A DNA stretch of 64,000 bases from a virus (IMGVR_UViG_3300042892_001369:533-64532); one strand, 5' to 3'; counted from the first letter of the stretch, positions 1,451 to 61,068 are shown. Translations and numbers: made by a program. The notes: generated by a model from the sequence alone, not told the origin.

Positions 1451-1456
1451 ATTTCC

Positions 1457-2264: not shown

Positions 2265-2281
2265 TATATTAGTATTACGTA

Positions 2282-3046: not shown

Positions 3047-3088
3047 GATATAATATAATTAATTATTTTTTTTTATTTCGAAAGTAAA

Positions 3089-3148: not shown

Positions 3149-3149
3149 A

Positions 3150-4616: not shown

Positions 4617-4629
4617 AATTTTTTAAATT

Positions 4630-5820: not shown

Positions 5821-5852
5821 AATATAATAATATAAAATTGGTTAATATTCTT

Positions 5853-8255: not shown

Positions 8256-8258
8256 TTA

Positions 8259-11309: not shown

Positions 11310-11310
11310 T

Positions 11311-11538: not shown

Positions 11539-11541
11539 TAT

Positions 11542-11793
11542 TTAAGCTGTAGCTTCTTCTGGCACAATCTCAGTATATGATCCATCAGATAGATCGATAT
11601 TGATTGCTCCATATTCTTTTTCTAATTCAGCTTTGAACTCTTCTGAAGCTTGGTTAACTTCTGCAACTTGGTGTAGTAATGCGTGTTTTTGCGCTTCTAA
11701 CACTCCAATGTTTGAAAACAAGAAGTTTAAATCTTTTTGTTGCTTTCTAATAGTTTCTAATTGTTCTTGTGTAATCTGTTTTACTACTTCCAT
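11542..11793 (-). CDS. Hypothetical coiled-coil protein
   Basis: 83-aa ORF in operon, heptad pattern. Confidence 0.7.
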   Translation of the reverse strand: MEVVKQITQEQLETIRKQQKDLNFLFSNIGVLEAQKHALLHQVAEVNQASEEFKAELEKEYGAINIDLSDGSYTEIVPEEATA

Positions 11794-11854
11794 GTGATTA
11801 AATTTAATTGTTAATTGTTATTATAATAATGTTAAAAATATTTTAACTTAGTTT

Positions 11855-12121
11855 TTATCTATATAATATTATGCTAGAAACAGGTATATTAACAGCGCTT
11901 GTAACGCTAGTTACCATTATAGGCAAAAATGAGCCTTGATTTAATCCAGAAAAAGTAGTGTCAGCACTATTACCCGCTAATCTAACAGTAATAGAGGCAG
12001 GATCCCCTTCAGTTGTAAAAGCACCAATAAAAACCGCTGACGGTTGTGATGCCTCTTCAGGAAATGCGCTTAATGTTTTTGATGTTACTGCAAAGTCTGG
12101 TTGATTTCCAAATTGTCCCAT
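11855..12121 (-). CDS. Small beta-rich virion protein (hypothetical)
   Basis: 88-aa S/T-rich ORF in the late region. Confidence 0.6.
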   Translation of the reverse strand: MGQFGNQPDFAVTSKTLSAFPEEASQPSAVFIGAFTTEGDPASITVRLAGNSADTTFSGLNQGSFLPIMVTSVTSAVNIPVSSIILYR

Positions 12122-12123
12122 AA

Positions 12124-12360
12124 TTATTTTTTAAATATTTTATTGTATAAACTTTGTTTTTTTATAGGCACTTCTAAAACAATATTCCCAGGAAAAGCAT
12201 AATCTTTCCCCGGTTTCATTAGTTTTTTATTACCTAAGTTGTCAATACCTAAAACGTCAAACTCAACATTTTCCATTGTTATGTTACCGCTAGGTATAAT
12301 ATTGTATGGTTTGTTTTTGTCTTTGCTATTTTTTTTATAGCCAGTTTTAGATATATTCAT
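12124..12360 (-). CDS. Hypothetical protein
   Basis: 78 aa containing ITMENV...LGIDNLG...MKPGKDYAFPG, a motif I recognise from Bacteroidota phage virion proteins. Confidence 0.65.
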   Translation of the reverse strand: MNISKTGYKKNSKDKNKPYNIIPSGNITMENVEFDVLGIDNLGNKKLMKPGKDYAFPGNIVLEVPIKKQSLYNKIFKK

Positions 12361-14904: not shown

Positions 14905-15161
14905 AGAACTATTACAACGTCTTGTAATCTTATAACTTGATATTCATGCCCGTCAAATTCAATTCCATGACCTGCAGCTTTATCATAGTAAATAACATCA
15001 GCTTCTTTTAAACATTTAATATCTTCACTAACAGAAACTACAATAGCTTCTTTATATCTAATGTTTTCTTTATCTTTTTCTTTTAATAATAAACCATTTT
15101 CCGTTTTTGATAATCCCTCTTTCCTTGGGAGGATCACTATATTATTACCTATTGCCTTCAT
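14901..15161 (-). CDS. groES: Co-chaperonin GroES (Cpn10)
   Basis: MKAIGNNIVI...KTENGLLL...AIVVSV...IEFDGHEYQVIRLQDVVIV; adjacent to groEL. Confidence 0.85.
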   Translation of the reverse strand: MKAIGNNIVILPRKEGLSKTENGLLLKEKDKENIRYKEAIVVSVSEDIKCLKEADVIYYDKAAGHGIEFDGHEYQVIRLQDVVIVL

Positions 15162-16707
15162 TGATTCTTAAATTATTAATTATACAATCAGTTGACAATA
15201 TGGTAATAGCTACAGAAGCTGCATTCATTAATGCACTTTTTGTAACAGATAATGGATCAATAATACCCGCTTCAATCATATTAACTTCTTCTCCAGTTAC
15301 AGCATTCAATCCAGAGCCATCTGGACGACTTGCAGTTGAACTTGGTATATCAATACCCGCGTTAGTTAATATTGTCTTAAACGGAGCCGTAATAGCTTTT
15401 AACAACGCTTCTTCAGCTTTATTCTTGAATACAATTATTCTTGATGCATCTAAAAGAGCAATTCCTCCTCCCGGAACAATTCCTTCTTTAATAGCTGCTT
15501 TAGTTGCGCAAATTGCATCTTCAACTCTATCTGCTTTTTCTTTTAATTCAATATCAGATCCAGCACCCACTTTTACTACTGCTACTTTTGCAGATAATCT
15601 AGCTAATCTTCTTTCTATTCTAATTACTTCAGCCGGTGGTAAGCTTGCTTCTAATTGTGATTTTAATTCATCAATTAAAACTTGAACTTCTTCTTTTGTT
15701 TCACCAACATGCAATATAGTCTCTGTATCACTAGTTATTGCTTTTAAACAATGACCTAAACAATCTGTATCAATAAGATCCATATCATCTCCTAAGTCCT
15801 CATTTATAATAGTAGCACCTGTTAACAATGCTAAATCCGATAATGTATCTTTTTTATTAATACCGTACGTCGGGGCATTAATCACATTTACTTTAATATT
15901 ACCTTTTACTTTATTCATTGCAAGAGCGGCTAATACTGTCGGCTCTATGTCTGCAATAATAAGTAATGGCTTGTTTGCTTTTATAACGTATTCTAAAACC
16001 GATTGTATTTGTCTTATAGATTCAACTGGTGATTCAATAAGCAATACTAATGGATTTTCTAATTCAGCAACTCTTTTGTTAGGATTAGTAATAAAATGTG
16101 AATTTACTAAACCTTTATCATATTGGACACCATCAATAATTTCTATTTCCGTTTCTGCATTTGCCGATGATTCCATCATAACAATTCCGGTTTCACCCAC
16201 CTCTCTAAATGCATCTGCAATAATCTTTCCAAGTACTGGATCATTATTAGTTGAAATCGTAGCAATGTGATCTATCATATCTCCATTTACAGGAACTTTA
16301 ATAGATTCTAAATATTCTACTACTTTGTCAACTGTTTGTTCAATACCGTTCTTTAAGTCTCTTGCATTAACTGTATCTTGGACTGCGTAAGCTTCTTGTA
16401 AAATAGCATGAGCTAATACTGTTGCAGTTGTTGTTCCGTCTCCGGCTTCTTTAACTGTTTTTCTAGCTGCTTCTTTTAAAAGTCTCGCACCCATATTTTC
16501 AACTGGATCAAGTAGTGTAATGCTGTCTGCTACTGTAACACCGTCTTTTGTAATAATCGGCCTACCTTTTCCGTCTTCTAGCATTACACATTTTCCACCC
16601 GCTCCAAGTGTTGAACTAACTGCTTTTGTAAGTTTCTCGATACCTGCAAAAACATTGTCCCTCGCCTCTTTGCCGAAGCTGAGGTTTTTAACTATTTCAT
16701 CGCTCAT
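15145..16707 (-). CDS. groEL: Chaperonin GroEL (Cpn60)
   Basis: ITKDGVTVA, AGDGTTTATVLA, ERRLARL, DRVEDAICATKAA and GIVPGGG motifs. Confidence 0.97.
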   Translation of the reverse strand: MSDEIVKNLSFGKEARDNVFAGIEKLTKAVSSTLGAGGKCVMLEDGKGRPIITKDGVTVADSITLLDPVENMGARLLKEAARKTVKEAGDGTTTATVLAHAILQEAYAVQDTVNARDLKNGIEQTVDKVVEYLESIKVPVNGDMIDHIATISTNNDPVLGKIIADAFREVGETGIVMMESSANAETEIEIIDGVQYDKGLVNSHFITNPNKRVAELENPLVLLIESPVESIRQIQSVLEYVIKANKPLLIIADIEPTVLAALAMNKVKGNIKVNVINAPTYGINKKDTLSDLALLTGATIINEDLGDDMDLIDTDCLGHCLKAITSDTETILHVGETKEEVQVLIDELKSQLEASLPPAEVIRIERRLARLSAKVAVVKVGAGSDIELKEKADRVEDAICATKAAIKEGIVPGGGIALLDASRIIVFKNKAEEALLKAITAPFKTILTNAGIDIPSSTASRPDGSGLNAVTGEEVNMIEAGIIDPLSVTKSALMNAASVAITILSTDCIINNLRINEGNR

Positions 16708-37906: not shown

Positions 37907-38668
37907 ATGAAAAGTTACAACATACCAAATTACCTTAGGTATAAAGAAGACATAGCTCGTGTTAATAAAAATAATAATGAAGCAGAATTTAAATCGTACT
38001 CAAGAGATCAACTTATAAGTAAATTCCTACCATTAGTAGAAAATATAGCCAAAAAGTTCTCAACAACGACGCAAGCCTGTGGAGTATTAGATATTACGGA
38101 TCTTATTCAGCATGGATCAATTGGTTTAATATTAGCCGTTGATAAAATAGAATGGGACACAATAGACTTGTCTGCTGATAAAGAAAAAACAATTAAGTCG
38201 TTTCTATCAAAAAGAATTAAAGGCTCAATTAGACGAGCTATAGACATCAACAGAGGTGCTATTAAAATTCCAGAGCATAAGCTAAATGAAATTAGAAAAG
38301 ACAATGGTCAAGATCATAAAATGGTTGCCATGTTTTTCAATTCCATATTCCTTAGTATCGATGAACAAATGAATGATGATGACGAAAATATGTTGTACCA
38401 AATCCCTGATAGAACAGAGCCGTACAATATTAATATGATGAATAAGTATTTAACAGGATTGTTGAAGAAACATTTAACAGAAACGGAATACGATGTACTA
38501 CGATTAAGTTATGGACTTGATTGTGATAAACATCCTGCAAATGCAATAGCAGACTATTTAGGCATCGAAGGAGCAAGTGCTTATGTTAGAATTTCTGAGA
38601 TAAAAAAGCAAGCAATCGCTAAGCTAGTTGCTAACGTTGATTCCTCGCAAGTCCTTGATTACCTATAA
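37907..38668 (+). CDS. Phage sigma70-family RNA polymerase sigma factor
   Basis: Region 2: RDQLISKFLPLVENIAKKF, DLIQHGSIGLILAVDKI, RIKGSIRRAI. Region 4: LTETEYDVLRLSYGL...IADYLGI...RISEIKKQAIAKL. Confidence 0.9.
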   Translation: MKSYNIPNYLRYKEDIARVNKNNNEAEFKSYSRDQLISKFLPLVENIAKKFSTTTQACGVLDITDLIQHGSIGLILAVDKIEWDTIDLSADKEKTIKSFLSKRIKGSIRRAIDINRGAIKIPEHKLNEIRKDNGQDHKMVAMFFNSIFLSIDEQMNDDDENMLYQIPDRTEPYNINMMNKYLTGLLKKHLTETEYDVLRLSYGLDCDKHPANAIADYLGIEGASAYVRISEIKKQAIAKLVANVDSSQVLDYL

Positions 38669-40817: not shown

Positions 40818-42533
40818 ATGCAAACAATAGAGATAAATGGTTTTTTGATTGACCAATTCAATCAATACAAGCTTGAAGAAGGTAAGTCTCAAGGAGTTTG
40901 TCCTTTATGTTCAGCTGATAGAAAAGGTGAACACAAAAAATTAAAGTGTGCTTCTTACGATTGGGAAAAAGGTATTGGTACTTGTCATAATTGTAACAAG
41001 TCATTCCAACTACATACTTACCAAAGAAAAGGAGCAAGCGAAAAGGTTTATATGAAGCCGCCAGTAAAAGAGCATGTCGAGGAAATGCAACTAAGCGAGC
41101 AGGTAATTAAATGGTTTGATTCACGAGGTATATCTAAAAATACTCTTTATGAATTAGGTGTAACTGAAGGTCCTGAGTTTATGCCTCAAACAGCTAAGGT
41201 AGAAAATGCAATACATTTTAATTATTTCATTGGTGATCAGCTAATCAATATAAAGTATAGAGACGGTCGCAAAAACTTTAAACTATATAAAGGAGCTGAA
41301 AAAATATTTTACAATATAAACAGCATTGTAGGATATGAATATTGTGTTATTGTTGAGGGTGAAATGGACGTGCTAGCGTTACATGAAGCAGGAATAACAA
41401 ATGCTATTTCAGTACCTAATGGCGCAACATTACATACAAATAATTTAGAATACCTAGACAATTGTATTGATTATTTCGACGACAAGAATAGAATAATTAT
41501 TGCAGTAGACTCAGACGAAGCTGGGCAAGCATTACAATCTGAATTAATCAGAAGACTAGGATCTGAAACTTGTTATATTGCAACATTTGAAGATTGTAAA
41601 GATGCAAATGAATACTTATTAAAATATGGCAAAGAAGCTTTAGCACAAAGAATTGGGAAAGCAAAGCCAGTGCCTTTAGAAAATGTTACAACATTTAAAG
41701 ACATAGAAGATGAGATTACGGATTTTGTTAGGAATGGTTTCAAACCTGGTTTTCAAGTTGGGCTATCTAATTTCGATGATATATTCAGCACTTATACTGG
41801 TCAGTTTATTACTGTTACTGGTGTGCCTAGTTCGGGCAAGTCTGATTTTGTTGATCAAATGGTTGTAGGCTATAATAAAAACTACGGTTGGAAAACAGCT
41901 TATGCTTCTCCTGAGAACTCACCAACATATTTGCATGCTCATAAGTTAATGCGTAAAGTTTGGGAGGGTATGCCAACAGAAGCAGATATTTATTCTGAAA
42001 GATGGAATCAAGTTGCGGATCATGTTAACGATAACTTTTTCTTTATCGATATGGAAAAATATACATTAGATGCAGTTCTTAAAAAAGCTGGTGAGCTTGT
42101 AAAAAGAAAAGGTATTAAGTGTCTTGTTATAGACCCATTCAATAAGGTTAGAGACAATGATGCGTCTGGTGATGTTAATGTATATACATTAGAATACCTA
42201 AGTAAGATTGAAATCTTTGCTAAAAAATATGATGTATTAGTAATGGTTGTTGCGCATCCTACTAAAATGTATAAAGGTTCTGATGGTAAAATTGAAGAGC
42301 CAACTATGTACAACATTAAAGGCGGAGGCGAATGGTACGACGCATCTTATCATGGCTTATTAGTCCATAGAGATTATGAAAACAAAACTGTTAAAGTAAA
42401 AGTACTTAAGGTTAAGTTTCAGAATCTTGGTGAGAACGGAGCTGAATGTTATTTTGCTTGGGAACCAAAGTCAGGTTGCTTTATTCCTCACATACCAATA
42501 GACACGTCTAATGATAAGCTTCCCTGGGAATAA
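40818..42533 (+). CDS. T7 gp4/Twinkle-like primase-helicase
   Basis: Zn finger CPLC...CHNC; TOPRIM IVEGEMD and AVDSDEAG; Walker A TGVPSSGKS; LVIDPFN and VAHP motifs. Confidence 0.93.
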   Translation: MQTIEINGFLIDQFNQYKLEEGKSQGVCPLCSADRKGEHKKLKCASYDWEKGIGTCHNCNKSFQLHTYQRKGASEKVYMKPPVKEHVEEMQLSEQVIKWFDSRGISKNTLYELGVTEGPEFMPQTAKVENAIHFNYFIGDQLINIKYRDGRKNFKLYKGAEKIFYNINSIVGYEYCVIVEGEMDVLALHEAGITNAISVPNGATLHTNNLEYLDNCIDYFDDKNRIIIAVDSDEAGQALQSELIRRLGSETCYIATFEDCKDANEYLLKYGKEALAQRIGKAKPVPLENVTTFKDIEDEITDFVRNGFKPGFQVGLSNFDDIFSTYTGQFITVTGVPSSGKSDFVDQMVVGYNKNYGWKTAYASPENSPTYLHAHKLMRKVWEGMPTEADIYSERWNQVADHVNDNFFFIDMEKYTLDAVLKKAGELVKRKGIKCLVIDPFNKVRDNDASGDVNVYTLEYLSKIEIFAKKYDVLVMVVAHPTKMYKGSDGKIEEPTMYNIKGGGEWYDASYHGLLVHRDYENKTVKVKVLKVKFQNLGENGAECYFAWEPKSGCFIPHIPIDTSNDKLPWE

Positions 42534-45610: not shown

Positions 45611-47479
45611 ATGAGCCTTAGTTTAGACAAACAAATATTAAGTGATATTACTGTATACACAAAGTATGCAAAGTACGTTCAATCAAAAGAACGTAGAGAA
45701 ACGTGGGAAGAATTAGTAACAAGGAATATGGATATGCACAAAGCCAAATTTCCACAAATGAAAGAAGCAATTGAACAAGTATACAAAAATTTCGTATTCA
45801 CTAAAAAAGTGTTACCTTCAATGCGCAGCCTACAGTTTGGTGGGAAAGCTATTGAACTTAATAATGCTCGCATTTATAATTGCGCTTTTTTACCTGTCGA
45901 TAATATTCGTAGTTTTTCTGAAACTATGTTTTTACTTCTTGGAGGCACTGGCGTTGGATATTCGGTACAAAATCACAACATTGATAAACTACCTGAAATA
46001 AGAAAGCCTAATTACGATCGCAAAAAACGTTATGTTGTTCAGGATAGTATTATTGGTTGGGCTGATGCAATCAAAACATTATTCAAATCGTATACAGGAG
46101 AGTTAACTTCACATATTGAATTTGATCTTTCAGATATACGCCAGAAAGGAGCATTACTTGTAACAGCAGGAGGTAAAGCACCAGGGCCGGAACCATTAAG
46201 ATTAGCATTAGTTAAGATTGAAGCTATTCTTCGCGAAAAAGAAGACAGATCAAAACTAACAGATATTGAATGCCATGATATTCAATGTCATATTGCCGAT
46301 GCAGTTTTAGCCGGAGGTATTCGTAGAGCAGCAATGATTTCATTATTCGACCTTGACAGTACTGCAATGCTAAATTGTAAAGCTGGAAATTGGTGGGAAG
46401 AAAATCCGCAAAGAGGTAGAGCTAATAACTCTGTTGTTTTAGTACGCCATAAAATTGATAAGAAAACATTTGATAAAGTATGGGAACGTATTGAAGCATC
46501 TGGATCAGGAGAGCCTGGAATTTATCTTACCAATGACAAAGATTGGGGTACAAATCCCTGCTGTGAGATTGCATTGAGACCATATCAATTCTGTAATTTA
46601 ACAGAGATCAATATGGCTAATATTGAAGATCAAGAAGATTTTAATGCAAGAGCATCTGCTGCATCATTCTTAGGAACATTGCAAGCATCATACTCAGATT
46701 TTCATTATCTTCGCGATATATGGAGAAAGAATACAGAAAAAGATGCTTTACTTGGAGTCTCAATGACAGGTATTGCATCTAAGTCAAACCTAGAATTAAA
46801 TTATGAAGAAGCAGCAAATACCGTTAAAGAAACAAACAAAGAAACAGCTAAAGCGCTTGGAATTAATATCGCAGCAAGAACGACGGCCGTTAAGCCAGCT
46901 GGTACAACTAGCTTGGTACTTGGTACTTCTAGCGGGATACATGCTTGGCATAATGACTATTATATACGTCGTATGCGCTTAGGCAAAAATGAAGCAATTT
47001 ATTCTTATCTTGCAATTAATCATCCAGAATTACTCGAAGATGAATACTTTAATCCAACATTACAATCAGTTATTTCAGTCCCTCAGAAGGCTCCAGACGG
47101 CGCTATAACACGGCATGAATCAACATTAGATCTATTGGAAAGAGTAAAACTTATATCTAGAGATTGGGTTAAGACCGGCCATGATAAAGGTAACAATACA
47201 CACAATGTATCTTGTACTGTTTCTGTTAGAGATGATGAATGGAAAATAATTGGTGAATGGATGTGGGCAAACAAAGAGTACTATAATGGACTATCTGTTT
47301 TACCATATCACGGTGGTACATATAAGCAAACTCCGTTTGAAGATTGTACAAAAGAAGTGTACGATGAAATGATGTCTACATTAAAGAACGTAGATTTATC
47401 TAAAGTAGTTGAGATACACGATAATACTAACTTTGCTGATTCAGCAGCTTGTGGAGGAGGAAATTGTGAGATTGTATAG
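45611..47479 (+). CDS. nrdJ: Class II (adenosylcobalamin-dependent) ribonucleotide reductase
   Basis: YNCAF, TNPCCEI...FCNLTE, VKPAGTTS and C-terminal ACGGGNC; no small subunit gene nearby. Confidence 0.88.
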   Translation: MSLSLDKQILSDITVYTKYAKYVQSKERRETWEELVTRNMDMHKAKFPQMKEAIEQVYKNFVFTKKVLPSMRSLQFGGKAIELNNARIYNCAFLPVDNIRSFSETMFLLLGGTGVGYSVQNHNIDKLPEIRKPNYDRKKRYVVQDSIIGWADAIKTLFKSYTGELTSHIEFDLSDIRQKGALLVTAGGKAPGPEPLRLALVKIEAILREKEDRSKLTDIECHDIQCHIADAVLAGGIRRAAMISLFDLDSTAMLNCKAGNWWEENPQRGRANNSVVLVRHKIDKKTFDKVWERIEASGSGEPGIYLTNDKDWGTNPCCEIALRPYQFCNLTEINMANIEDQEDFNARASAASFLGTLQASYSDFHYLRDIWRKNTEKDALLGVSMTGIASKSNLELNYEEAANTVKETNKETAKALGINIAARTTAVKPAGTTSLVLGTSSGIHAWHNDYYIRRMRLGKNEAIYSYLAINHPELLEDEYFNPTLQSVISVPQKAPDGAITRHESTLDLLERVKLISRDWVKTGHDKGNNTHNVSCTVSVRDDEWKIIGEWMWANKEYYNGLSVLPYHGGTYKQTPFEDCTKEVYDEMMSTLKNVDLSKVVEIHDNTNFADSAACGGGNCEIV

Positions 47480-47847: not shown

Positions 47848-50800
47848 TTAATCACCGCCCATCTTTTTCTTTCTACGCTCTCTTTTCTTTCTATACTTTT
47901 CTTGCCTTACTTGGTCTAAATAGTTATTATATTCATCATCAGATAATTTACTTATAGAGTCTTTTAGCGCGGTCTTTTTAGCTTCCCTTGTTTCCTTAGA
48001 CTTTATTTTGCCTTCTTCTTTACGCTGAGCTTTTGCTTCCTCAATAATCTTTAAATCACCAGGAGTTTTTTCTATTCCAACTGTCCAAGGAGTAAACCCT
48101 AATGCAACAGCTGCTCTTTGCCATGCCGCATTTTGATTGTTTAATGCTTGAGAAACATTTTCAATTTTATTTACCAAACGATCCATTGGTACATTTAATA
48201 ATACCTCAGCCCCTTTACCAGTTACAGAATACATAGGGCCAAGATGAACTCTTCCGTCTTGCATTATTCCCCAACCTCTTTCTTCTATTAAATCTTTGTC
48301 AAATTCTGTTTGCTTTAACCCGGCATATAATTTTCTTAATTTAGATCCAATTGGAGGAGATATATTAGCAGCTTCAATCGCAACGCCCGCATAATCTTTT
48401 TGTTTTTTATTCTGTTGTTCCATGTATTTTACAGCCACATTTTTAAGAGTAGATACAATACCTCCATAGAACCCAGTACCCCTAAGGATTGAATCAAGTA
48501 CTCCATTAGCTAAATCAACAGTCTTTTCTTCTCTATTCTTTTTTCTTTTTGCTTCTTCTTCATCTTCGTCAAACAATACTGAAAATAAACCTTGCTGTAA
48601 TATTGAAAATGCCGTATTTTGAAGTATTAAATAATAACTGATTTTAGCAATATTAGTTTTAGCATCCCCCCTACCGTTTTTCAAATCCAAAAAAGCTTTT
48701 TTAACTAATCTTGATTGCTGCATTGCTGTATTCTGAAAAGTCAATAGTAATCTTCCAGCTCCACTTGCTTGTTGTTTAGATATATCCTTTGGATCACCAG
48801 ATTGTTGTGTCTCATCTGAGATCTTAGAAAATTCTTCCCATGCTAATGCTTCAGCTTCAGCTTTAGACATACCTTCTGAAATATGAGTTTTAATTCTATT
48901 TCTATAATACGGAGCACCACCTGATGATATTGCAAAACTATCTGCTAATTGAGTTGGAGTATAACCTATTTTCAATAGATATGAGATAACAGCTGCTGGT
49001 TTGTTTTTACTGCCAGCAGCCGCATTTGCAATTTCAGAAGCAACAACATCCTCGCGTAATCCGCCACGTCTTTCTTTCATTTTATCAGAGTTCCATATAG
49101 TAGAAAAATCACTCCAATATTGTTTCTGATTAGCAAAAGCTTTGGCGACCGCAACAGGGTTATTGTCTCTTAAATTTAAGAAGTTAGCCGTACTAAGTAA
49201 TTGTAAAGCGGCGGATCTTGTGTTAAGGAACATAATAACTCCCGTTGATCCTGTGACCCAATTAGTCCACATGCTTGTCTCTCTGTCTTTCCCGTAGCTA
49301 CGGTTTTTACCATTAGTCATTCTATATATTGAGTCCTCTAATGCTTCTCTTACATCAGTTCCATATACAGCCTGGATTTTATTCATATTAGGGCCGACTA
49401 ATTTACCGGATTCCCATTTTCCGAAGATAGTCTCAACATTTTCAATAAACTCTCCTAAGAATTTTTTTCTTCCACCTGATTGAGTTATATTAAATAGATC
49501 AGAAACTATTGTATCAGTGTCCCAATGTTCAGATGGTTCAACCCAGCCCTTCTCTTGTCGACTCATTGCCTTTAATCCTTCTTTAAATGCCAGCAATTGG
49601 GGGTCGTTATTAACCATATCAACAAGTTTTCTATTGTCTCTTTTAGTTAATCCCGGTATTTCGATTCCCGCATCATTCCATAATGCAACCCGTATCGCTT
49701 GATCATAAGTAAAATCTTTATCAGGATTAAGGGTTTCTAATTTCTTTTTAACATCCGGGAATGCTTTTGTCAATGTTTTGTACGATTTTTTAATTGACTG
49801 TCTTGCCCCGTCCATTAAATTAACACCATTAATATATGGTTTTAATAAAGTCTCGTCAAAGAATTTTTGTTGTTCTTCACCTCGTCTACCTTTGCCCATA
49901 AATTTATATAGTAATAATTCAAAGTCTGCTGCAGATGGCGGAACATATAAATCAAATTTATTTTTACCAGCCCCGCGTCTTTTTGCAACAATATCAGAAT
50001 ATACTTTGTAACTTTCTACTCCTTTATTTTCCTCAATAATTTTATTAAACTCCTCAGACAATCCCTTGCTGCGTTTAATTTTAGCTTGTTGCACTTTTGA
50101 TTTAACATCCAATACGCTAAGAGCTTCTTTAACTGCTTTAACATTTTGAATAGCATCATCTGAAAAATAAAAATCATTATATCCCTCGGCTGCTTTACTA
50201 ATAATCCAGTCAGCCTTAGCCTTAGCGGTGCTATTTCCTAATCCTACAATATTATCTAATTTAATATCTAATCCTTGTGCTTTTAAAAATTCTTGTATAG
50301 CAATATTTGAATCGGCTGGTCTAGCGGTCAAGACGTAAACATCTTTAGTTCCAAACTTACCAGCGAGTTTCATAGCTTTATCAAACATCGGCCCCCTTTG
50401 CCCCTCATTTACTTTTGAAAATTCAGAGAAATCGAATACTGCTCCTCTGTCTAAGTAATCTTGACCAGATTTTGCAAATTCTTCTGCGTTTAGTTTTCCA
50501 CGCTCCCCATCTGGCATTGTATATAATACATTTGATTTTGTTCTAGCTAATGTGTCGTCAAAGTCTAATACACTTATGCCTTTGTTTTCTTTGCTACGCA
50601 TAAGTGATCTTTCAATGGCGGTACTATTATTTATCTGTAGTCTTCTTTCTTTTGCTCCCTGGGCATTGTTCATAGCTGCATCTAATATTTCTTTAGATCC
50701 ATATAAACTTTCTATGTTATGCATCCTATTGCGATAAGGTATTAAAGCTTCTAAAAATTCTGGAGCAAAATGCCTGTCTTTACCGGTGTATTTTAGATTA

Positions 50801-53800
50801 GAGTCTGTCAATGCCTGATCCGCCGATAACGGAATTAAATTCACCCTCATTTTATTAACAAACCCTTCTAATTCCGTTCTGGTCATATTAGGATCTTTCA
50901 AAAACCTTTTTAGCTCGGCTTTTAAATCATTTATGGTTGTATTGTGCTCTAATCTGCTTTCACTTGATTTTAAACCATCAATCCAAAACCCTGCTTTTGA
51001 CATTTTTCTAATTGCGCCAAGCATGTCCACCGCTAATAAGTCAATATGATTTTCTCCTTTTTCAACCATACCTTTTTTCTTATAATACTCTATAGTATCA
51101 ATAACATACTTTTGCTGTTTAGCCGCTTCTGCATCAATAGTTTTAATTACCTCTTTACCTTTATCCACTGTATTGGCTTTTCTAAGCTCGGATTTTATTT
51201 CTGATATAGGTTTATTATGTGTAAAAACGTCACCATCTATAGTAATATAAGTTCTAAGCTTACCACTTACGGTTTTTTCTTTAAGACCAAAAACACCTTC
51301 TCCGTAAAGTTCTCCCAAACGCTCTTCCCCGAATACTTTTCTTAGAGCTGGATCCAAAACATAAGTAAGATAATCTCTATTGGTTGTAAAGAAATTCCCT
51401 TCGCTAGTTTTAAAAGACTTTAATTCTGCTTTTAAGAATTCATTTACCGATGAGGCAATAGTTTTATTGTCAGCATTCTTTAATTTTGACAGAGTGCGTT
51501 CTAATGCTTCTGTAGAAGCTATTGACCCAGCTTTTTGTACTACCGACCCCAATTTTTTACCGCGAGCTTCTTCCATAGAACGCTCATAAGCCATATACTC
51601 TTGTATAATAGGATTAGAAGTAGCTTTTTCTTTATCTATTGTTGCAGTATTTGATATGTAATCTTTTACAATTGATTGCTCGTTGAGCGCCAAATTATCA
51701 TAAAATTTAAAGAATTCATCTTTAGCTTTTGAAATATCTGCTGTCTCATTTTTGTTTTTTGATCTCTTAACATTACCTCTCTCTATTTGTCTAATAATAT
51801 CAACAGCCATTGCATCACCAATAGTAACACCCTGTCTTTCTTGATTAGTAACTAACGCTTCAAACAATGGCCCCTCTTCTGCAAAGTCTTTTGCAATAAT
51901 ATCAAATGATATTTCCTCTGCTGTAGCTTTTGCTAACGATTCTTTTCGGCCACGAATAGGATTGCCTGTTGAGCCTAAAAATTGACCTAGATAATCAGCA
52001 TCAGAAACTAAGTTAACTGCGTTAGGTAGCCTTCTAACAAGCTCTGCGCCAGATGTACGTCCCGCATTATCCGTAGACACAGCTTCACGATCTATTTTTT
52101 GGTCAACCCACTCAGGGTAATTAACCCACTTACCGTTTATTCTTTTTTGTATTGCTTGTGGTATACCTCCAACGCCATTAGCCCCCATTAGCCATGTAGT
52201 AGTCATGTTCTCTAATGTTGCTTTTTTATTTTTTAATAGCCAACTTCTAAATTGATTATCTTTTTTTCCACCCATTGCGGTTTTTAAATCAATATCCGCT
52301 TGTTTACCCATTGCATCTTTGATTTCTGCAATTATTGGCGTAACCGTTCTATTAAGCGTAATTGGTGTGTCTAATCTAGACTTTGTAGTTCTAAGTGTAG
52401 TTAAAACTTTATTGGTAATTGATTGTACAACTGGTTCTTCGACAATTTTTTGATCCAACAAACTTTTATACTTAGGAGCTTCAGCTTCTACTCTTTCAAA
52501 AGATTGCTCAGCTGTTTCAGTAGCCATTAACCCTTTCTGATCTTCAATATCTTTTGAAAATTCTTTACCCAAAACCCTTCTTGATGCTGTAATTGCTCTA
52601 ACAGGTAAATATTTATTAATATATGCGGCCAATGGAATTCCCATTGCAGGATCATATTTTTGAATTAAAGATAAAATTCCACCATCTCCGGTCTCTATTT
52701 CATCTGTTAATAATTCTTCTTCAAACCCCGGAGCGTCTTTTCTTTTATTAACGAGTGCTTTTGTAATTGGCTTGAATAAATTTATAATATCCATTGCAGC
52801 TTCAACTCCCTTAGCATTGTAAGCGGCCTGCACTCTATCGGAAGCAATCTTGCCTTTATTATCCGTAATTACTTTCCTAGCCTCTTCTTCATAGCTTACA
52901 TTTAATTTCTCCGGTTTAGCTTTTACTTCAGCAACCGGATTTTCCAAGGCATCTATTTTGTCCTCAAGAACTTTAAGTTTCTCTTTATAAACTTTATCGG
53001 TTACGCCTCCATAACTCCAAGTCTCAGTTAAATCTTCAATTTGATTTTCTAAGTCTTCTATTTTTTCTTTTGATCTAATAATATTTGTTCTAGAAATCTC
53101 AGTCGCTCCTTTTGTTCTTTCAGCAAAAGAAATAGCTTTTTCACTAGCTTCTCCTTTTTTACCAGACTCTGCTAATGATTTTAATATTCCTGTAATTTCT
53201 TCTACACTAGCTTCTTCCGGAATAGGCTCTCCGGTTTTTCCTGCCACTTTTTTTAATGTTTTATCAAAGAATGATTTAAAGCTATTAATGCTTTCTTTGT
53301 TATAACTTAATTCACCTGTTCTATTTGCCTCAGAAAAAGCAGCTAAGTATTCTTCATAATATTTATTTTTAAGAACCGGAACTTTTTCTATTTTCCCATT
53401 CTTATCTAATTTTTCTTCAAACGCGTATGGTTTTACGGCATCAGTTACTACCTTTAGCTCTTTGGAGGATAACGTAGCTAGCCAATTATCTATAAAATCA
53501 ACGCCTTCGTCAGTTAATGTACCATCATCATTTTTCATCCACTCTCCAAATACTAAATGGGTGGATTCATGTCCTCCTGTTCCTGTCTTACTATATTCTT
53601 TTGCTAAAGATTTATTGATATGTAAATTACCATTTAAATCGTAAAATCCAAAACTGATTTCTCCTGATTTCAGCTTATTACTTTCACCAAATGATACGGC
53701 TGTTTTTTCAAATCTTTCAGTAGCGTTTTCTCCTTCATAAACTATTACTTCTTTGCCTAATGCTTTTGCATTTTCTTCTGCTGATTTTATATCAAGATCT

Positions 53801-56658
53801 AGATCTTTTACTAATCTAGTGTCGCTTTCCCCAATAAGCTTTCTTGCCTCAGATTCTAGGGCCTCTGACTTTTTAGTTAACTCTGTTAGTTTTGTTTCAT
53901 AGACTACTTTTAATGCCGGGTTATCTTTAGCTAATGCTTCATTTGTTTTTATTTCCCCTTGAATCTTAGCTTGGTTAAACATATTTTCAAGCAAAGGTTT
54001 TCTTTCCGGTGTATTTCTAAATATTTTCATTTGATCAAGAGCAGTGCCAATTTTTTGGGCGGTTCCTTGATAGCTATTCATAATATCGTATATCGGAGAA
54101 TTTTTCTTTAATCCTAGTTGGTTAGCAATTAATTCAATTGGATTGCTTGCCAAAAGCTCTAAAGAAGTGCTATCTAGATTTTCACCATATTTGATTCTAT
54201 TTGCTGCTACCCATAAATCTGTAGCGTCATAATCAACAACACCCGCGGCTATATCGCCCTTTGCAATTTGAATGTCAACATTTCCTCTTAATACATTAGC
54301 TGCTTTTCTTATAGCCGCTTCTTCCGTAGCCATAGCTTCAAAATTATCTGAATCTTCGTATTTTTTTTCAAGTTTTTCAATAGCTTCTTTTTCAGCTTTG
54401 TCAATTTCAATATTTCTATTCTCAGCTTCTTTGCCTTTTGAAACTTTTAACTTACCATCTATACCTAATATTTTACCCGCATTAGGGCTCTCAACATCAA
54501 ACACCGGTAGTTTGTTTATATCAGATTTTAAATTTTCAAATGTTTGTCTAGGAGCAAATCCCCCTAATAACACAAGTGACCCAAATGTGCCGGCTACATG
54601 CTGATAATCGGATAATTGAGCCCATTGTTGTGCTTGATCAATTTTGCCCTTTGCGACTAATTGATCCTTTATTAATGTAGCTCTTTCAGCTATATTCATT
54701 ACAACAGTTCCCGACGTAGCACCAGTTAAAACATTTGCTGCTTGACTAGCTGTTTTTGATTTAGAACCAAACATAAGTATTGGTGACAAAAAAGGTATTT
54801 TATTTGCTACCATCTTTTTTATCAACTTACCAGCTAAAACATTACCAACGCCTAAACTTGCCGCAAACGTAGCATCTACAGGTGGAGCTCCCGTTGTATT
54901 TGCTAAAACTTCATCAGCACCGGCCATTAAAGCAACTTCTCTAGCCCCTCCTACAAATAACGCAGTAGCATTTCTCATTGCTCTACTATTGCCAAATACT
55001 TTACTAGACCAAGCTGTAAATATATTGCCTGCTTGTGTTAATTGTGGCCCTGATAATTTTTTTGTTAGGAATAACGATCCTACAAGCGGAATTAAATGAG
55101 CTGTGCCTTTTAAAGACAAATCTCCTATATCTTCCTTTAATATTTTTTCTAATTGATTAGGATTTTCATATTTAAACCCAGCACTAATTAATGATTCATT
55201 AAAAGCCTTTGCGGCCTCCTTTGTGTTTTGTAATCCAGTTGCCGAGTATATACCTGTATTTCCAAAAGCTTTATATGTTTCATCAATAAAATCAACAATT
55301 TTGTAATTTCTTTCTGCTGCAATTGGATCAGCATTTAATTCAATTGCTTTTGTTAAAGTTACATATTCTTGTAATTTTTGGTTAAAAGCTTTTGCAATTG
55401 GATTGTTTCCTGGTAATTCGTTTAAATTTGATGGAAGTTTTCCTGTTTCATAAACTTGCCCTAAGTTTTTTATATCTTGGAAATAGCCTTCATTATCTTC
55501 AGGGTCTTCAGATGTAATATCTTGAATATAAGATCCAATTTTTTCAATATTACTTTCACCTTCCCATATTTTATCTTTAAGCTGTAGGGCTTTATTTGAC
55601 AATGCTAAAAGCTGATAATACGAATCCTCCTGAGCAGCCTGCAAATCATCTATTCCTCTGGTTTCAGCAATAGCAGCTGCATTAGCATCTTGGTTTTCTT
55701 TCCAAGCCAACGCTTTTTTAGCAGTTAGCAATTCGCCGGTATTTTCGTCGTATAATTTAGTTTTTATACCTAAAGCCTCTCTTCCCGCTTTTATTTCGCT
55801 CTCAAGTCTATTAATTTCAGAGGTATTTTTTTCAGTTTTTGCTCTTATTAATAAACTGGTTTTTCTAACAAGCTCTCGTTCTCCATAGTCAAGGAATTCT
55901 CTGCCATTTGACGAAGCTTTATCTCTTGTATTAACTTTTTTGCTAAGATCTAATGCTCGTTCGGCTTCTCCATTTTCAATAACCCACGCTTGTTGCATTC
56001 TTGGCAAGTTATTAATTATAAACTGCCCGTCTTTTATATTAGTATATTCTTTGTCTTGTAGCTCGTTATTTACTACCGGCGCAATTTGGCCTGTTATTCC
56101 ATCAGCACTAGTAATTGTACTAATAGCTTGATATACCTCTGGCTTTTCAAGTTCACTTTCTGAAACCCAAATAAGATCGCCTAATTTATTTTTATATGTA
56201 TTAGATTTATTTTCTACTTGTTGTTCATCAACTCTAACTTTTGAATCATTTAAGCTAGCTATAATACTAGCGTCTTCTAATCTTTTTTGCCCAGCTTTGA
56301 TAGATTCTTTTTCTCTTTGCTCGTTTAAATATTCTGGGCTATATATAGAAAACTTTTCCTCTTGAGCAGGATATACTAATTCAACGTTGGCTTTTTCAAT
56401 ATCTACTGGGGATATTTTTTCTGTTTTTTTTGGCTTACGTCTATCTTTTTTAAAATCGTATGAAAAATTATCAATTTGTTCGCTTTTTGACGGCTCACTC
56501 CAAGGATATTTTTTTGTAGAAACTTTTGTTTCTTCTGTTTTTTTCTTTAAACCTTTACTCTCTATAATGGCACTAGCCGAGGTTTTTTGCTCGGCTGCCA
56601 TTTTATTTATTTGATCTTCTGTATAGATTTGCCCAGAGGCATCAACGTATTCAAACAT
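47848..56658 (-). CDS. Giant (2936 aa) virion/ejection polyvalent protein with zincin, sigma-region-2-like and HAD modules
   Basis: HESTH at aa 1030; GILSLIQKYDPAMGIPLAAYINKYLPVRAI from aa 1327; DFDDT at aa 2032 with LTAR and FSDD; last gene of the ejection-protein cluster. Confidence 0.8.
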   Translation of the reverse strand: MFEYVDASGQIYTEDQINKMAAEQKTSASAIIESKGLKKKTEETKVSTKKYPWSEPSKSEQIDNFSYDFKKDRRKPKKTEKISPVDIEKANVELVYPAQEEKFSIYSPEYLNEQREKESIKAGQKRLEDASIIASLNDSKVRVDEQQVENKSNTYKNKLGDLIWVSESELEKPEVYQAISTITSADGITGQIAPVVNNELQDKEYTNIKDGQFIINNLPRMQQAWVIENGEAERALDLSKKVNTRDKASSNGREFLDYGERELVRKTSLLIRAKTEKNTSEINRLESEIKAGREALGIKTKLYDENTGELLTAKKALAWKENQDANAAAIAETRGIDDLQAAQEDSYYQLLALSNKALQLKDKIWEGESNIEKIGSYIQDITSEDPEDNEGYFQDIKNLGQVYETGKLPSNLNELPGNNPIAKAFNQKLQEYVTLTKAIELNADPIAAERNYKIVDFIDETYKAFGNTGIYSATGLQNTKEAAKAFNESLISAGFKYENPNQLEKILKEDIGDLSLKGTAHLIPLVGSLFLTKKLSGPQLTQAGNIFTAWSSKVFGNSRAMRNATALFVGGAREVALMAGADEVLANTTGAPPVDATFAASLGVGNVLAGKLIKKMVANKIPFLSPILMFGSKSKTASQAANVLTGATSGTVVMNIAERATLIKDQLVAKGKIDQAQQWAQLSDYQHVAGTFGSLVLLGGFAPRQTFENLKSDINKLPVFDVESPNAGKILGIDGKLKVSKGKEAENRNIEIDKAEKEAIEKLEKKYEDSDNFEAMATEEAAIRKAANVLRGNVDIQIAKGDIAAGVVDYDATDLWVAANRIKYGENLDSTSLELLASNPIELIANQLGLKKNSPIYDIMNSYQGTAQKIGTALDQMKIFRNTPERKPLLENMFNQAKIQGEIKTNEALAKDNPALKVVYETKLTELTKKSEALESEARKLIGESDTRLVKDLDLDIKSAEENAKALGKEVIVYEGENATERFEKTAVSFGESNKLKSGEISFGFYDLNGNLHINKSLAKEYSKTGTGGHESTHLVFGEWMKNDDGTLTDEGVDFIDNWLATLSSKELKVVTDAVKPYAFEEKLDKNGKIEKVPVLKNKYYEEYLAAFSEANRTGELSYNKESINSFKSFFDKTLKKVAGKTGEPIPEEASVEEITGILKSLAESGKKGEASEKAISFAERTKGATEISRTNIIRSKEKIEDLENQIEDLTETWSYGGVTDKVYKEKLKVLEDKIDALENPVAEVKAKPEKLNVSYEEEARKVITDNKGKIASDRVQAAYNAKGVEAAMDIINLFKPITKALVNKRKDAPGFEEELLTDEIETGDGGILSLIQKYDPAMGIPLAAYINKYLPVRAITASRRVLGKEFSKDIEDQKGLMATETAEQSFERVEAEAPKYKSLLDQKIVEEPVVQSITNKVLTTLRTTKSRLDTPITLNRTVTPIIAEIKDAMGKQADIDLKTAMGGKKDNQFRSWLLKNKKATLENMTTTWLMGANGVGGIPQAIQKRINGKWVNYPEWVDQKIDREAVSTDNAGRTSGAELVRRLPNAVNLVSDADYLGQFLGSTGNPIRGRKESLAKATAEEISFDIIAKDFAEEGPLFEALVTNQERQGVTIGDAMAVDIIRQIERGNVKRSKNKNETADISKAKDEFFKFYDNLALNEQSIVKDYISNTATIDKEKATSNPIIQEYMAYERSMEEARGKKLGSVVQKAGSIASTEALERTLSKLKNADNKTIASSVNEFLKAELKSFKTSEGNFFTTNRDYLTYVLDPALRKVFGEERLGELYGEGVFGLKEKTVSGKLRTYITIDGDVFTHNKPISEIKSELRKANTVDKGKEVIKTIDAEAAKQQKYVIDTIEYYKKKGMVEKGENHIDLLAVDMLGAIRKMSKAGFWIDGLKSSESRLEHNTTINDLKAELKRFLKDPNMTRTELEGFVNKMRVNLIPLSADQALTDSNLKYTGKDRHFAPEFLEALIPYRNRMHNIESLYGSKEILDAAMNNAQGAKERRLQINNSTAIERSLMRSKENKGISVLDFDDTLARTKSNVLYTMPDGERGKLNAEEFAKSGQDYLDRGAVFDFSEFSKVNEGQRGPMFDKAMKLAGKFGTKDVYVLTARPADSNIAIQEFLKAQGLDIKLDNIVGLGNSTAKAKADWIISKAAEGYNDFYFSDDAIQNVKAVKEALSVLDVKSKVQQAKIKRSKGLSEEFNKIIEENKGVESYKVYSDIVAKRRGAGKNKFDLYVPPSAADFELLLYKFMGKGRRGEEQQKFFDETLLKPYINGVNLMDGARQSIKKSYKTLTKAFPDVKKKLETLNPDKDFTYDQAIRVALWNDAGIEIPGLTKRDNRKLVDMVNNDPQLLAFKEGLKAMSRQEKGWVEPSEHWDTDTIVSDLFNITQSGGRKKFLGEFIENVETIFGKWESGKLVGPNMNKIQAVYGTDVREALEDSIYRMTNGKNRSYGKDRETSMWTNWVTGSTGVIMFLNTRSAALQLLSTANFLNLRDNNPVAVAKAFANQKQYWSDFSTIWNSDKMKERRGGLREDVVASEIANAAAGSKNKPAAVISYLLKIGYTPTQLADSFAISSGGAPYYRNRIKTHISEGMSKAEAEALAWEEFSKISDETQQSGDPKDISKQQASGAGRLLLTFQNTAMQQSRLVKKAFLDLKNGRGDAKTNIAKISYYLILQNTAFSILQQGLFSVLFDEDEEEAKRKKNREEKTVDLANGVLDSILRGTGFYGGIVSTLKNVAVKYMEQQNKKQKDYAGVAIEAANISPPIGSKLRKLYAGLKQTEFDKDLIEERGWGIMQDGRVHLGPMYSVTGKGAEVLLNVPMDRLVNKIENVSQALNNQNAAWQRAAVALGFTPWTVGIEKTPGDLKIIEEAKAQRKEEGKIKSKETREAKKTALKDSISKLSDDEYNNYLDQVRQEKYRKKRERRKKKMGGD

Positions 56659-59622: not shown

Positions 59623-61068
59623 TTAGTAACTTGATACCGAGAACACTGACCCTACACTCCATAATTCTTTTAATCCTCCCGGATTGGTTACAGAATCGGT
59701 TGACATAGTAACTGTAGCAAATCTACCTTTAATACCAGTCATTTGCTGACCATATAATATCTCCTCGTTTGCAGGGGCACTATTATTAACTAGGTTAGCA
59801 TAATATTTATTTTCTTTTCTATTAAAACCATAATGGTAAGTAACGCCCCCCTCTGTATACGTACCCCCTATGTAACTTGGCACTATTGCTGTTGTATCAT
59901 TCACAGAAATCCAAGTACCTGGACTAGATCCTGGGTCAAATTTTTGCGCATCTGATATAAAACTATTAACTTGCCAGCCATTGTCTCCTTCGTAGTTAAC
60001 TGTTTTAAAGTTTTTAGCAATTGAAGGGTTTTCATTAAGCACAAATGTAATAGATGACGCATAGCCAGTTGATGGTGTTGGCAATCCGTAAAATTGCCCT
60101 ACAGGAACATTGTTACTATAATGTTGCCATAATTTACCATCATTTAAGGAATACACTTTATTTCGTATGCTGAATAATTGAGATGGTTTAAATGTAAAAA
60201 ACCCTGTAAATCCAGTAACTAATTCATCAAAATTTGTAGTTGCATAATATTGATTTGGGTTTGTTCTACTTGTTTGCAAAGATAATACATATTGTTTATT
60301 ATGTATATCCCACCCACCTATAATGTACCCTGGGCCAATATTTGTAGAAGGTGAACTTATAGAATTAAAAGCATCCCTAAAAAAATCAGTCATTCCGTTC
60401 TCTGAAATTTCTGTTATCCCATCCTGGGATAATCTAAGCACCGCGTTACGGAATCTATCTGTAAAGTATTTTCTATATCCATAAACAGCAAAACTTTGGG
60501 GATCTTGACTAATACCATAGTTACCAGCATAAGCTTGAATATCGCCAATGACAGCAAATGATGATGTTACCGTCCCTCCTCCTTCAGCAGAATATATTGC
60601 ATCCTTATCAATTAACGCTCTACTAACTTTATCTTCTTGAAATATAATTAGGTTTGTATCCTCAGCATATAATCTTTGTATAGATCCATTAGATGGATTT
60701 AAGCTTTTTGTTATATCTTCTCCTACTGAAAATTGATTGGTATTGTTTGTTCCTGTTCTGGAATTATATACTCCTGAATATATTAATGAACTTGATCTTA
60801 TCGATGCTCCATTGTCGTCTTCAACTATGTAAGCTTTTGGTCCAAAGTCAACTGTTGTATCGTTATATCCACCTTGTATTCTAGCTTCCTCAACAAACCA
60901 CTCACGGTCATTTGGGTTTACCTCTAAATTTGGAGTAGGATAACCCCCTATTTCCTCAGGTATACCAAAAGATCCACCATATACAGGGTCAAAGTCTGCA
61001 GGGTCATCTGTTAATACTTTTTTTAATAAAAATGTATTAAAATATTTAACTTCTATTGATGCTGCCAT
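59623..61068 (-). CDS. Tail protein (nozzle/stabilization-like)
   Basis: Beta-propeller-like content (GNYGISQDPQSFA, YFTDRFRNAVLRL) and KNFKTVNYEG. Confidence 0.6.
   Translation of the reverse strand: MAASIEVKYFNTFLLKKVLTDDPADFDPVYGGSFGIPEEIGGYPTPNLEVNPNDREWFVEEARIQGGYNDTTVDFGPKAYIVEDDNGASIRSSSLIYSGVYNSRTGTNNTNQFSVGEDITKSLNPSNGSIQRLYAEDTNLIIFQEDKVSRALIDKDAIYSAEGGGTVTSSFAVIGDIQAYAGNYGISQDPQSFAVYGYRKYFTDRFRNAVLRLSQDGITEISENGMTDFFRDAFNSISSPSTNIGPGYIIGGWDIHNKQYVLSLQTSRTNPNQYYATTNFDELVTGFTGFFTFKPSQLFSIRNKVYSLNDGKLWQHYSNNVPVGQFYGLPTPSTGYASSITFVLNENPSIAKNFKTVNYEGDNGWQVNSFISDAQKFDPGSSPGTWISVNDTTAIVPSYIGGTYTEGGVTYHYGFNRKENKYYANLVNNSAPANEEILYGQQMTGIKGRFATVTMSTDSVTNPGGLKELWSVGSVFSVSSY

Follow-up and report, generated by a model that had tools for sequence, protein, structure and literature searches.

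The virus record IMGVR_UViG_3300042892_001369 is complete, with direct terminal repeats, and has a length of 64,532 bp. We analysed positions 533-64532, a stretch of 64,000 nucleotides that makes up nearly the whole record and is called the window here. Its minus strand contains a giant open reading frame (ORF), whose 2,936-amino-acid (aa) product has a short motif at four places between its modules. An earlier description made from the DNA sequence alone, referred to below as the original prediction, proposed that four RSK tripeptides in this protein mark the boundaries of a self-cleaving polyprotein. We compared the protein with its relatives and with predicted structures, using an alignment of 121 homologs for the counts of residues at the four sites and a wider set of 213 non-identical giant proteins. 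Structures were predicted with AlphaFold2 (AF2) for aa 940-2030 (1,091 residues; alignment of 49 rows; mean predicted local distance difference test score, pLDDT, 78.0) and for aa 1990-2936 (73 rows; mean pLDDT 78.7). The giant ORF and the features within it, read from the N terminus of the protein, are the following.

47848..56658, minus strand: giant ORF P0001, a multidomain protein of 2,936 aa and ~330 kDa, the last gene of the minus-strand structural operon
53767..56658, minus strand: N-terminal region (aa 1-964), variable and coiled-coil-rich with Gly/Ala-rich hydrophobic stretches, and with PDB matches of the coiled-coil type only
56539-56658, minus strand: first ~40 aa (MxEYxxxxGxxYTE...), conserved family-wide, which the following ~900 aa are not
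53101..53766, minus strand: zincin-like module (aa ~965-1186), modelled by AF2 as strands, an HExxH helix and a Glu-bearing helix (pLDDT ~80-90)
53557..53571, minus strand: HESTH (aa 1030-1034), the putative zinc-binding and catalytic HExxH motif; H1030, E1031 and H1034 kept in 121/121
53350..53352, minus strand: E1103, candidate third zinc ligand of the gluzincin type, invariant in the 49-row and 48-row alignments
53068..53076, minus strand: junction motif copy 1 (R1195-S-K), between the zincin-like and the conserved middle module; Ser in 115/121, following Lys (K+1) in 78/121
51766..53067, minus strand: conserved middle module (aa 1198-1631), for which the label 'sigma-like' is unproven; conservation 0.7-0.87 over aa 1250-1625
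52552..52563, minus strand: E-F-S-K (aa 1366-1369), in the family [D/E]-F-[S/K]-K-D, with F in 111, K in 115 and D in 119 of 121
51757..51765, minus strand: junction motif copy 2 (R1632-S-K); Ser in 101/121, preceding Lys (K-1) in 121/121
50599..51756, minus strand: variable middle module (aa 1635-2020), of low conservation and occupancy, modelled by AF2 as mixed alpha/beta with pLDDT up to 95
50590..50598, minus strand: junction motif copy 3 (R2021-S-K); Ser in 104/121, Lys in 91/121
50074..50589, minus strand: HAD-superfamily phosphatase module (aa 2024-2195), assigned from phrog_415, motif residues and an alpha/beta fold (AF2)
50065..50073, minus strand: junction motif copy 4 (R2196-S-K); Ser in 121/121, K-1 in 110, K+1 in 99
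47851..50064, minus strand: C-terminal all-alpha module (aa 2199-2936), the most conserved part (0.8-0.9), all-helical in the AF2 model

The junction motif in the protein family

The giant protein belongs to a large family. A word-indexed search recovered at least 991 full-length homologs of 2,500-3,300 aa, at least 539 family loci are present in IMG/VR, and a full scan found the C-terminal module to be common to 2,283 clusters at 50% identity. At every locus examined the protein is a single uninterrupted giant ORF. We considered whether proteins of 791-1,703 aa with the C-terminal module are natural split genes; they begin within giant-protein sequence and look contig-truncated, and were not taken as evidence for stand-alone modules.

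RSK occurs exactly four times in the query protein, at R1195, R1632, R2021 and R2196, each at the nucleotide positions originally given, and I, V or L stands two residues before the Arg in all four cases, as had also been noted (NIIRSK, NVKRSK, SLMRSK, and KIKRSK). The expected number of copies is 0.83 (Poisson P 0.010), and four copies are reached in 1.15% of 2,000 shuffles. This count alone is not evidence, because 61 different tripeptides are present at least four times in this Lys-rich protein (10.8% Lys and 6.4% Ser), and we rejected the enrichment as an argument since it fails correction over all tripeptides. As judged by sequence comparison, the signal for a real feature comes from the homologs and not from the tripeptide count.

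Among the 121 relatives, the four sites share the motif [V/I]-K-[F>Y,R,L,H]-S-K-[T/S], with varying flanks. The consensus is x-[V/I]-K-[F/K/L/Y/R]-S-K at site 1, where the position of the query Arg is occupied by F (31), K (26), L (19), A (13), Y (12), or R (8), and ERGN-[V/I]-K-[F/R/Y/L/H]-S-K at site 2 (F 59, R 17, Y 14, L 10, H 7, and N 5). Site 3 reads [F/Y/..]-S-K-x-x-KGIS (F 32, Y 24, N 12, K 11, and R 5), and site 4 reads QQA-[K/R]-[I/L/A]-K-[F/Y/R]-S-K-[T/S] (F 103, Y 11, R 6, and L 1). Arg is a minority state at all four sites and characterises the clade to which the query belongs (P0001-P0006). On these counts the family as a whole mostly has FSK or YSK, and RSK is the variant found in this one clade; the expectation that RSK would be conserved in homologs is borne out for the positions of the motif but not for the tripeptide itself.

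Individual proteins tend to use one and the same residue at the variable position of their four sites (RRRR in 5, YYYY in 5, and FFFF in 5 of the 121 homologs). There are 257 matching site pairs in these homologs, compared with 163.9 in column shuffles, and none of 5,000 shuffles reaches the observed number; in 35 representatives sharing <70% identity the numbers are 59 and 37.6, again with 0/5,000 shuffles reaching the observed value. Column shuffling, on which both comparisons are based, ignores relatedness. The query encodes Arg with AGA at sites 1 and 2 and with the rarer codons CGT and CGC at sites 3 and 4, where its sister lineages have Tyr. These codons fit a recent Tyr-to-Arg change at sites 3 and 4 after Arg was already present at sites 1 and 2.

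Other [F/Y]SK strings are present in the query at aa 1022, 1367, 2080, and 2610, in contexts different from that of the junction motif. Those at 1367, 2080, and 2610 have the form [D/E]-F-[S/T]-K and are conserved inside domain blocks, and the one at 1022 (E-Y-S-K) is not conserved. The string at aa 1366-1369 stands at the start of a 30-residue disordered loop within the middle module (pLDDT<50, model residues 426-455) and may represent a variant fifth site, unless it has nothing to do with the motif. A position-specific scoring matrix (PSSM) built from the four sites gives 2.37 matches per protein across the 213 proteins, versus 0.32 in shuffled sequences, a comparison that is partly circular because the matrix was trained on the same sites; most of the extra matches are equivalents of site 1 or tandem copies beside site 3.

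The predicted structures place the motif between domains. Site 1 lies at the end of a loop with pLDDT<50 (model residues 247-257), site 2 within another such loop (model residues 689-700), site 3 in the coil that links a helix to the first HAD strand (model residues 31-37, pLDDT ~65), and site 4 in a segment of pLDDT 57-61 between the last HAD helix and the all-alpha C-terminal module. The objection that RSK might fall inside folded domains does not apply to these models, because all four sites are in low-confidence coil, between the confident domains and not within them. Sites 3 and 4 closely bracket the HAD module, as the original prediction held: its first strand starts 5 residues after site 3 and its last helix ends ~12 residues before site 4. 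Sites 1 and 2 likewise bracket a conserved block (aa ~1250-1625), which had been described as sigma-like, an identity that fails with Pfam, hhalign, and Foldseek.

The sites also coincide with the places where members of the family differ in content. BLAST coverage and column conservation reveal two conserved cores, at aa ~950-1640 and ~2000-2900, with variable parts between. When the query is compared with 213 relatives, 178 of 517 internal end points of high-scoring segment pairs (HSPs) lie within 15 aa of the four sites, versus 21.8 expected. HSP ends cluster at 1620-1680 (site 2) and HSP starts at 2000-2030 (site 3); the excess comes from sites 2, 3, and 4, site 1 being rarely a break point, and further clusters of HSP ends at ~880-1010 and ~1820-1850 have no motif in the query.

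Modules have been lost and inserted around the motif. Several relatives have no HAD module (L017, L020, L022, L023, L027, and L042), and in these the homology resumes at site 4. Three of them (L020, L022, and L023) retain K-F-S-K or K-R-S-K directly before the C-terminal module, L022 and L023 behind unrelated upstream sequence. Four other relatives (L018, L019, L026, and L030) have an extra module of 150-330 aa between the HAD and C-terminal modules, with a copy of the linker '..QQAxxKFS..' on each side, and the HSP coordinates of L041 indicate a similar insertion. The extra module (aa ~2243-2405 in L018, aa ~2012-2350 in L019, and also in L026 and L030) begins 'KFSLTSKQDLKW' and contains the conserved string '..F[VT]F.AKEPSR.KLYN..'. 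A Pfam search with two of the inserted modules gave no match above the cut-off.

Among 140 representatives at 50% identity, K-[F/Y/R]-S-K precedes the C-terminal module behind many different upstream sequences, with a spacing to that module that shifts by up to ~10 residues, and 74 of the 140 have [FYW]-S within 8 residues upstream of it. These comparisons support the four sites as module boundaries and reveal the pattern that the original prediction had suggested looking for, a short motif conserved at boundaries while the modules between them vary, vanish, or are inserted. DNA-level recombination as the reason for the conservation was set aside, as only 3-4 codons are conserved. The motif is very probably a selected junction signal.

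The resemblance among the four sites could instead be without common function, a by-product of Lys/Ser-rich linkers and of duplicated linker ancestry. The failure of RSK alone to reach significance after multiple testing and the linker duplication visible around inserted modules are what such an origin would lead one to expect. Against it, the aromatic-Ser core is kept in variable, disordered linkers, in relatives down to ~45% identity, after upstream sequences that are unrelated to each other, and at shifting spacing, and the PSSM matches exceed those in shuffles 7-fold, subject to the circularity of that matrix. This explanation is already disfavoured, and we regard it as very improbable.

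The zincin-like module and proposed proteolytic processing

A candidate protease domain lies upstream of site 1. The original prediction had pointed to HESTH at aa 1030-1034 with a downstream 'EEY', and both are present, the two Glu residues being E1102/E1103. Across 48 sequences sharing 11-46% identity with the query, this otherwise ~18% identical module has no invariant columns besides the H, E, and H of HExxH and E1103. HExxH is present in 210 of the 213 giants, the 3 exceptions being contig-truncated. In the AF2 model E1103 is at the start of a helix (164-175), where it would be a candidate zinc ligand, and the modelled topology fits a minimal gluzincin. Comparison of the zincin profile with PDB sequences gave matches to M48 and to a snake-venom metalloproteinase only, at E~1. 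A language-model lead from the ESM Atlas places the module nearest to clusters with LPD23, LPD1, and ART-PolyVal, with LPD23 on 18-20% of members (score 0.95-0.96).

We favour a reading in which the motif is a junction signal for proteolytic processing, most likely by the embedded zincin, and give it a probability of roughly 0.45. The motif in each flexible linker would be the recognition signal for one protease that cuts the polyprotein into its modules, which run from the N-terminal region and the zincin through the conserved and then the variable middle module to the HAD phosphatase and the all-alpha C-terminal module. The leading candidate for this protease is the protein's own gluzincin-like domain (HExxH and the invariant Glu), acting in cis or between copies. 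The parts of this reading differ in strength. For the motif being a putative cleavage site at all the odds are even, and for the built-in zincin doing the cutting they are somewhat below that. The giant gene is the last one at the tail/cargo end of the structural operon, and we infer from this gene order that its product is probably virion cargo, packaged and then ejected with the DNA. Cutting after injection, as first proposed, rather than in the capsid seems unlikely.

If the protein is self-cleaving, cutting by the gluzincin at the K-[F/Y/R]-S-K linkers, whether inside the capsid or once the protein has been ejected, would yield a HAD (polynucleotide) phosphatase and three further products: a module resembling a transcription factor, an effector module that can be swapped, and the conserved module of alpha-helices. 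It is conceivable, if doubtful, that a phage lineage of aquatic metagenomes with thousands of relatives delivers its early proteins in this way as one self-cleaving polyprotein, with the motif as a universal adaptor for plugging in effectors. The putative scissile bond could be the Lys-aromatic bond or, alternatively, the aromatic-Ser bond. Zincins like anthrax lethal factor have a hydrophobic S1' pocket and prefer a hydrophobic P2 residue, which would suit the Lys-aromatic bond. Nup98-type autoproteolysis cleaves before a Ser that follows an aromatic residue; such a cis-autoproteolytic mechanism was set aside, as the four sites have no common upstream fold.

The motif could also be a cleavage site for another enzyme, a host protease or an unrecognised phage protease, with the zincin acting on host targets or on the envelope. 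Host proteases process phage capsid proteins in other systems. In the window, scans with PHROGs, Pfam, or both found no processing protease among the 31 other ORFs covered, the scan having stopped short of smaller ORFs, most of them on the plus strand; the only other peptidase among the 31 is an M15 cell-wall enzyme. Outside the giant ORF, K[FYR]SK is absent from all window ORFs of 60 aa or more, which gives no indication of shared processing with the head proteins. An explanation by a prohead protease was rejected, there being also no protease family match between the portal and capsid genes. With no other processing protease in the scanned ORFs and no K[FYR]SK in other window ORFs of that size, the embedded zincin is the obvious candidate, and it is present alongside the motif in every complete family member. 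We consider a different cutter improbable, a point in its favour being that covariation between the zincin and the motif is indistinguishable from general phylogenetic signal.

That covariation concerns the second x of HExxH, where Leu goes with Phe at site 4 (Leu with Phe 107, non-Leu with Phe 56, non-Leu with non-Phe 36, and Leu with non-Phe 4). Independent pairs give 7.9 changes in the same way versus 1.0 in the other way (median p 0.039). A complex prediction with the zincin (residues 1-247 of the aa 940-2030 segment), the site-4 linker (residues 186-230 of the aa 1990-2936 segment), and Zn scored 0.00 and counts neither way.

Several observations weigh against processing by the zincin. 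The covariation is suggestive and not clearly more than lineage signal; it is not proof, because, when the 213 zincin columns are ordered by their mutual information with the site-4 residue, the second-x column comes only 14th. Tests of independent pairs between the four sites were not significant (median p 0.125 to 1), with too few pairs. The zincin-like module has no match in Pfam, including searches with 48 homologs, or among PDB sequences or Foldseek structures, leaving the motif and the predicted topology as the basis of its assignment, and a six-frame search of the genome with the LPD23 hidden Markov model (PF18838) gave no match and left the ESM Atlas lead unconfirmed. In many relatives the motif is degenerate at sites 1 and 3, the query has no copy of it at the N-terminal boundary of its zincin module, and a motif-like PSSM match lies inside the HAD fold of divergent relatives (DTLAFSKS). 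Before the C-terminal module, some of the 140 representatives have no recognisable motif or have a K-P/S-S-L-x-x-P pattern instead.

The precedent of phage N4, the nearest analogue in function for which data exist, points in the same direction. Its virion RNA polymerase contains an HExxH subdomain and is nevertheless packaged unprocessed, according to the available part of PMC5512222, and in the text of a 2026 paper on N4 structure 'proteoly' has 0 occurrences and 'cleav' appears only for a TEV step (PMC13434306). Because N4 gp50 is reported to be packaged unprocessed, a non-proteolytic linker signal remains a serious rival to cleavage. The motif would then be a docking or hinge element in a protein that is packaged and ejected intact, and its partner could be the portal, the inside of the capsid, GroEL/GroES encoded by the phage itself, or a factor that sets the pace of unfolding and threading through the tail. 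The motif's conservation, its place in linkers, and its persistence are compatible with short linear motifs of any kind, genes for GroEL and a GroES-like protein are present in the phage, and 'cleav' and 'proteoly' have 0 occurrences for crassvirus cargo in the text of PMC10172136. On the other side, no docking partner was identified, the invariant HExxH and Glu in a module of such low identity imply an active peptidase that needs a substrate, and a motif found at every shuffling junction and travelling with inserted modules resembles the processing sites of polyproteins. We consider a docking or hinge role less probable than not by a wide measure, and proteolytic processing remains the likelier and simplest interpretation.

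Comparison with known systems

Zincin-like peptidases were proposed in 2017 to process polyvalent phage proteins (Iyer, Burroughs, Anand, de Souza, and Aravind; PMC5512222, as far as its available text goes). Polyvalent proteins are giant polypeptides of mobile elements that join unrelated enzymatic modules with a zincin-like peptidase proposed to release them, and the query protein is similar in joining several unrelated domains, namely a zincin signature, a HAD module, two further conserved modules, and variable inserts. The Pfam PolyVal/LPD models (MPTase-PolyVal and LPD23) had no match on the whole protein, on six pieces of it, or on 48 zincin homologs. The two differ in that no cleavage-site motif is named in the available part of PMC5512222, whereas a conserved junction motif is defined here.

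N4 gp50 (Schitoviridae) resembles the query protein in its giant size (~3,000-3,500 aa), in being encoded with virion genes, and in its architecture, an HExxH subdomain with a large and mainly alpha-helical C-terminal part behind it, for which the accessible text of PMC13434306 reports no structural homologs. By position, too, the giant gene stands where N4-like phages encode cargo or ejected virion proteins. It differs in having no sequence or fold match to the query protein, in which we detected no T7-like RNA polymerase domain, and the sources available to us, as far as they extend, report no repeated junction motif for N4 gp50.

A second parallel is the cargo of crassviruses (PhiCrAss001 gp45-gp50). 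In the accessible part of PMC10172136, the cargo genes follow immediately after the muzzle and tail genes and share their strand, as the giant gene does here, and their products are proposed to be kept in the virion and to leave it before the DNA, a role that in our case would follow from gene position. Crassviruses have several separate products where there is one polypeptide here, and genomes of ~100 kb rather than 64.5 kb. Searches with PHROG and Pfam gave no homology to the gp45-gp50 families in the query protein. DdrB of phage P1 (darA operon) is packaged in the head, has a C-terminal zincin-like domain, and is proteolytically processed before packaging (PMC5512222, available part). It differs from the query protein in its single cleavage, its different domains, and the lack of homology.

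The polyproteins of RNA viruses and pp220/pp62 of African swine fever virus (ASFV) are single translation products with an embedded or dedicated protease and a recurring motif at their junctions. The giant protein has in common with them a recurring short motif at module junctions, in linkers that are predicted to be accessible. RNA viruses and ASFV belong to an unrelated virus realm, and their proteases are of other classes.

No example of a defined repeated junction motif in a tailed phage was found in the literature searched, supplementary files being outside that search. The kind of protein, a polyvalent or cargo giant with a zincin, is known, and the new element is the repeated junction motif that persists through module exchange. 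Processing of polyvalent phage proteins by zincins has been a hypothesis since 2017, with no cleavage site defined in the part of PMC5512222 available. In this family a conserved candidate site is present in four copies of exactly known position, E1031 is the candidate catalytic Glu, and F, Y, and R types of the site occur naturally, so that few constructs would be enough to test the idea. If it is true, polyprotein logic would operate in a tailed phage and would explain the swapping of effector modules, and the released products would be predictable from sequence alone.

Other modules and neighbouring genes

Pfam searches with the whole protein and with six pieces of it gave no match above the cut-off. 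Foldseek searches with both AF2 models found no PDB match at E<=0.001, and in BFVD one uncharacterised viral protein at 8e-7. The first ~40 aa could be a packaging or portal-targeting signal.

In favour of the sigma-like label of the conserved middle module there is only a language-model lead from the ESM Atlas, where Sigma70_r2 is found in 27/30 named matches at a borderline score of 0.90. The label is unproven because Pfam, hhalign, and Foldseek are all negative: Pfam has no match, the best sigma match in Foldseek is 6omf_F at E 4.1, and a six-frame search of the genome with Sigma70_r2 (PF04542) matches only another gene, at ~38012-38239. An hhalign comparison of the middle module with that gene gave a probability of 0.14%. 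The phage thus has its own sigma-like gene apart from the giant protein:

37907-38668, plus strand: separate sigma-like gene, 253 aa, matching Pfam Sigma70_r2 with 23.8 bits alone and 27.3 with neighbours (cut-off 24 bits; E 2.2e-6 for this genome)

The variable middle module matches no Pfam family. The HAD module matches phrog_415 ('polynucleotide kinase') at E 2.4e-5 over aa 2017-2196, which is the sole PHROG match of P0001. Its motif residues D2032, T2111, K2148, and D2168 are invariant in 73 sequences, with D2034, D2035, and T2036 kept in at least 90%. Weaker matches are to Pfam HAD (E 0.11, below the cut-off) and, by Foldseek, to HAD phosphatases (probability 0.6-0.8 at E about 1). The C-terminal module has no PDB fold match at E<=0.001, and it is C-terminal in 150/150 of the representatives listed, with the match starting at its residues 1-5.

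Judged by sequence similarity, the genome is podovirus-like and related to phages of Flavobacteriia. The nearest terminase is that of an uncultured 'Podoviridae sp.' record, MW202828.1 (65% identity in the large terminase), followed by those of Flavobacterium, Cellulophaga, Tenacibaculum, and Maribacter phages. The slot of the giant gene is kept in MW202828.1 (L102), where positions 741-12320 (minus strand) encode a 3,859-aa protein with two HEFGH motifs, and its content has been replaced: this protein has no detectable similarity to the query protein and no recurring K-F-S-K, which indicates that the junction motif is specific to the query family. A tblastn search of 50,697 deposited phage records with the whole giant protein and with the C-terminal module gave no match, and this collection contains no cultured representative of the family.

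The minus-strand block 5' of the giant ORF encodes a 948-aa virion protein, a 481-aa muzzle-like protein, two tail-fibre-like genes, and a 477-aa ORF. The portal, large terminase, and capsid-like genes are on the same strand as the giant ORF, at the opposite end of the window. Annotated genes outside the giant ORF include the following.

59623-61068, minus strand: 481-aa protein matching the crassvirus muzzle C-terminal domain PF25729 (E 2.9e-8) and phrog_14478
15145-16707, minus strand: GroEL homolog (phrog_5725, E 1e-135)
10707-11309, minus strand: GroES-like protein (phrog_13932)
45611-47479, plus strand: class II-like ribonucleotide reductase (phrog_367, E 3e-130)
40818-42533, plus strand: primase-helicase (phrog_239)

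The muzzle-like gene is a crassvirus-type tail element inside a 64.5-kb genome related to Flavobacteriia podophages. The phage chaperonins may be relevant to the folding of a 330-kDa multidomain protein; MW202828.1 likewise encodes groEL and a chaperonin-10 gene. The ribonucleotide reductase and primase-helicase genes converge on the 3' end of the giant gene.

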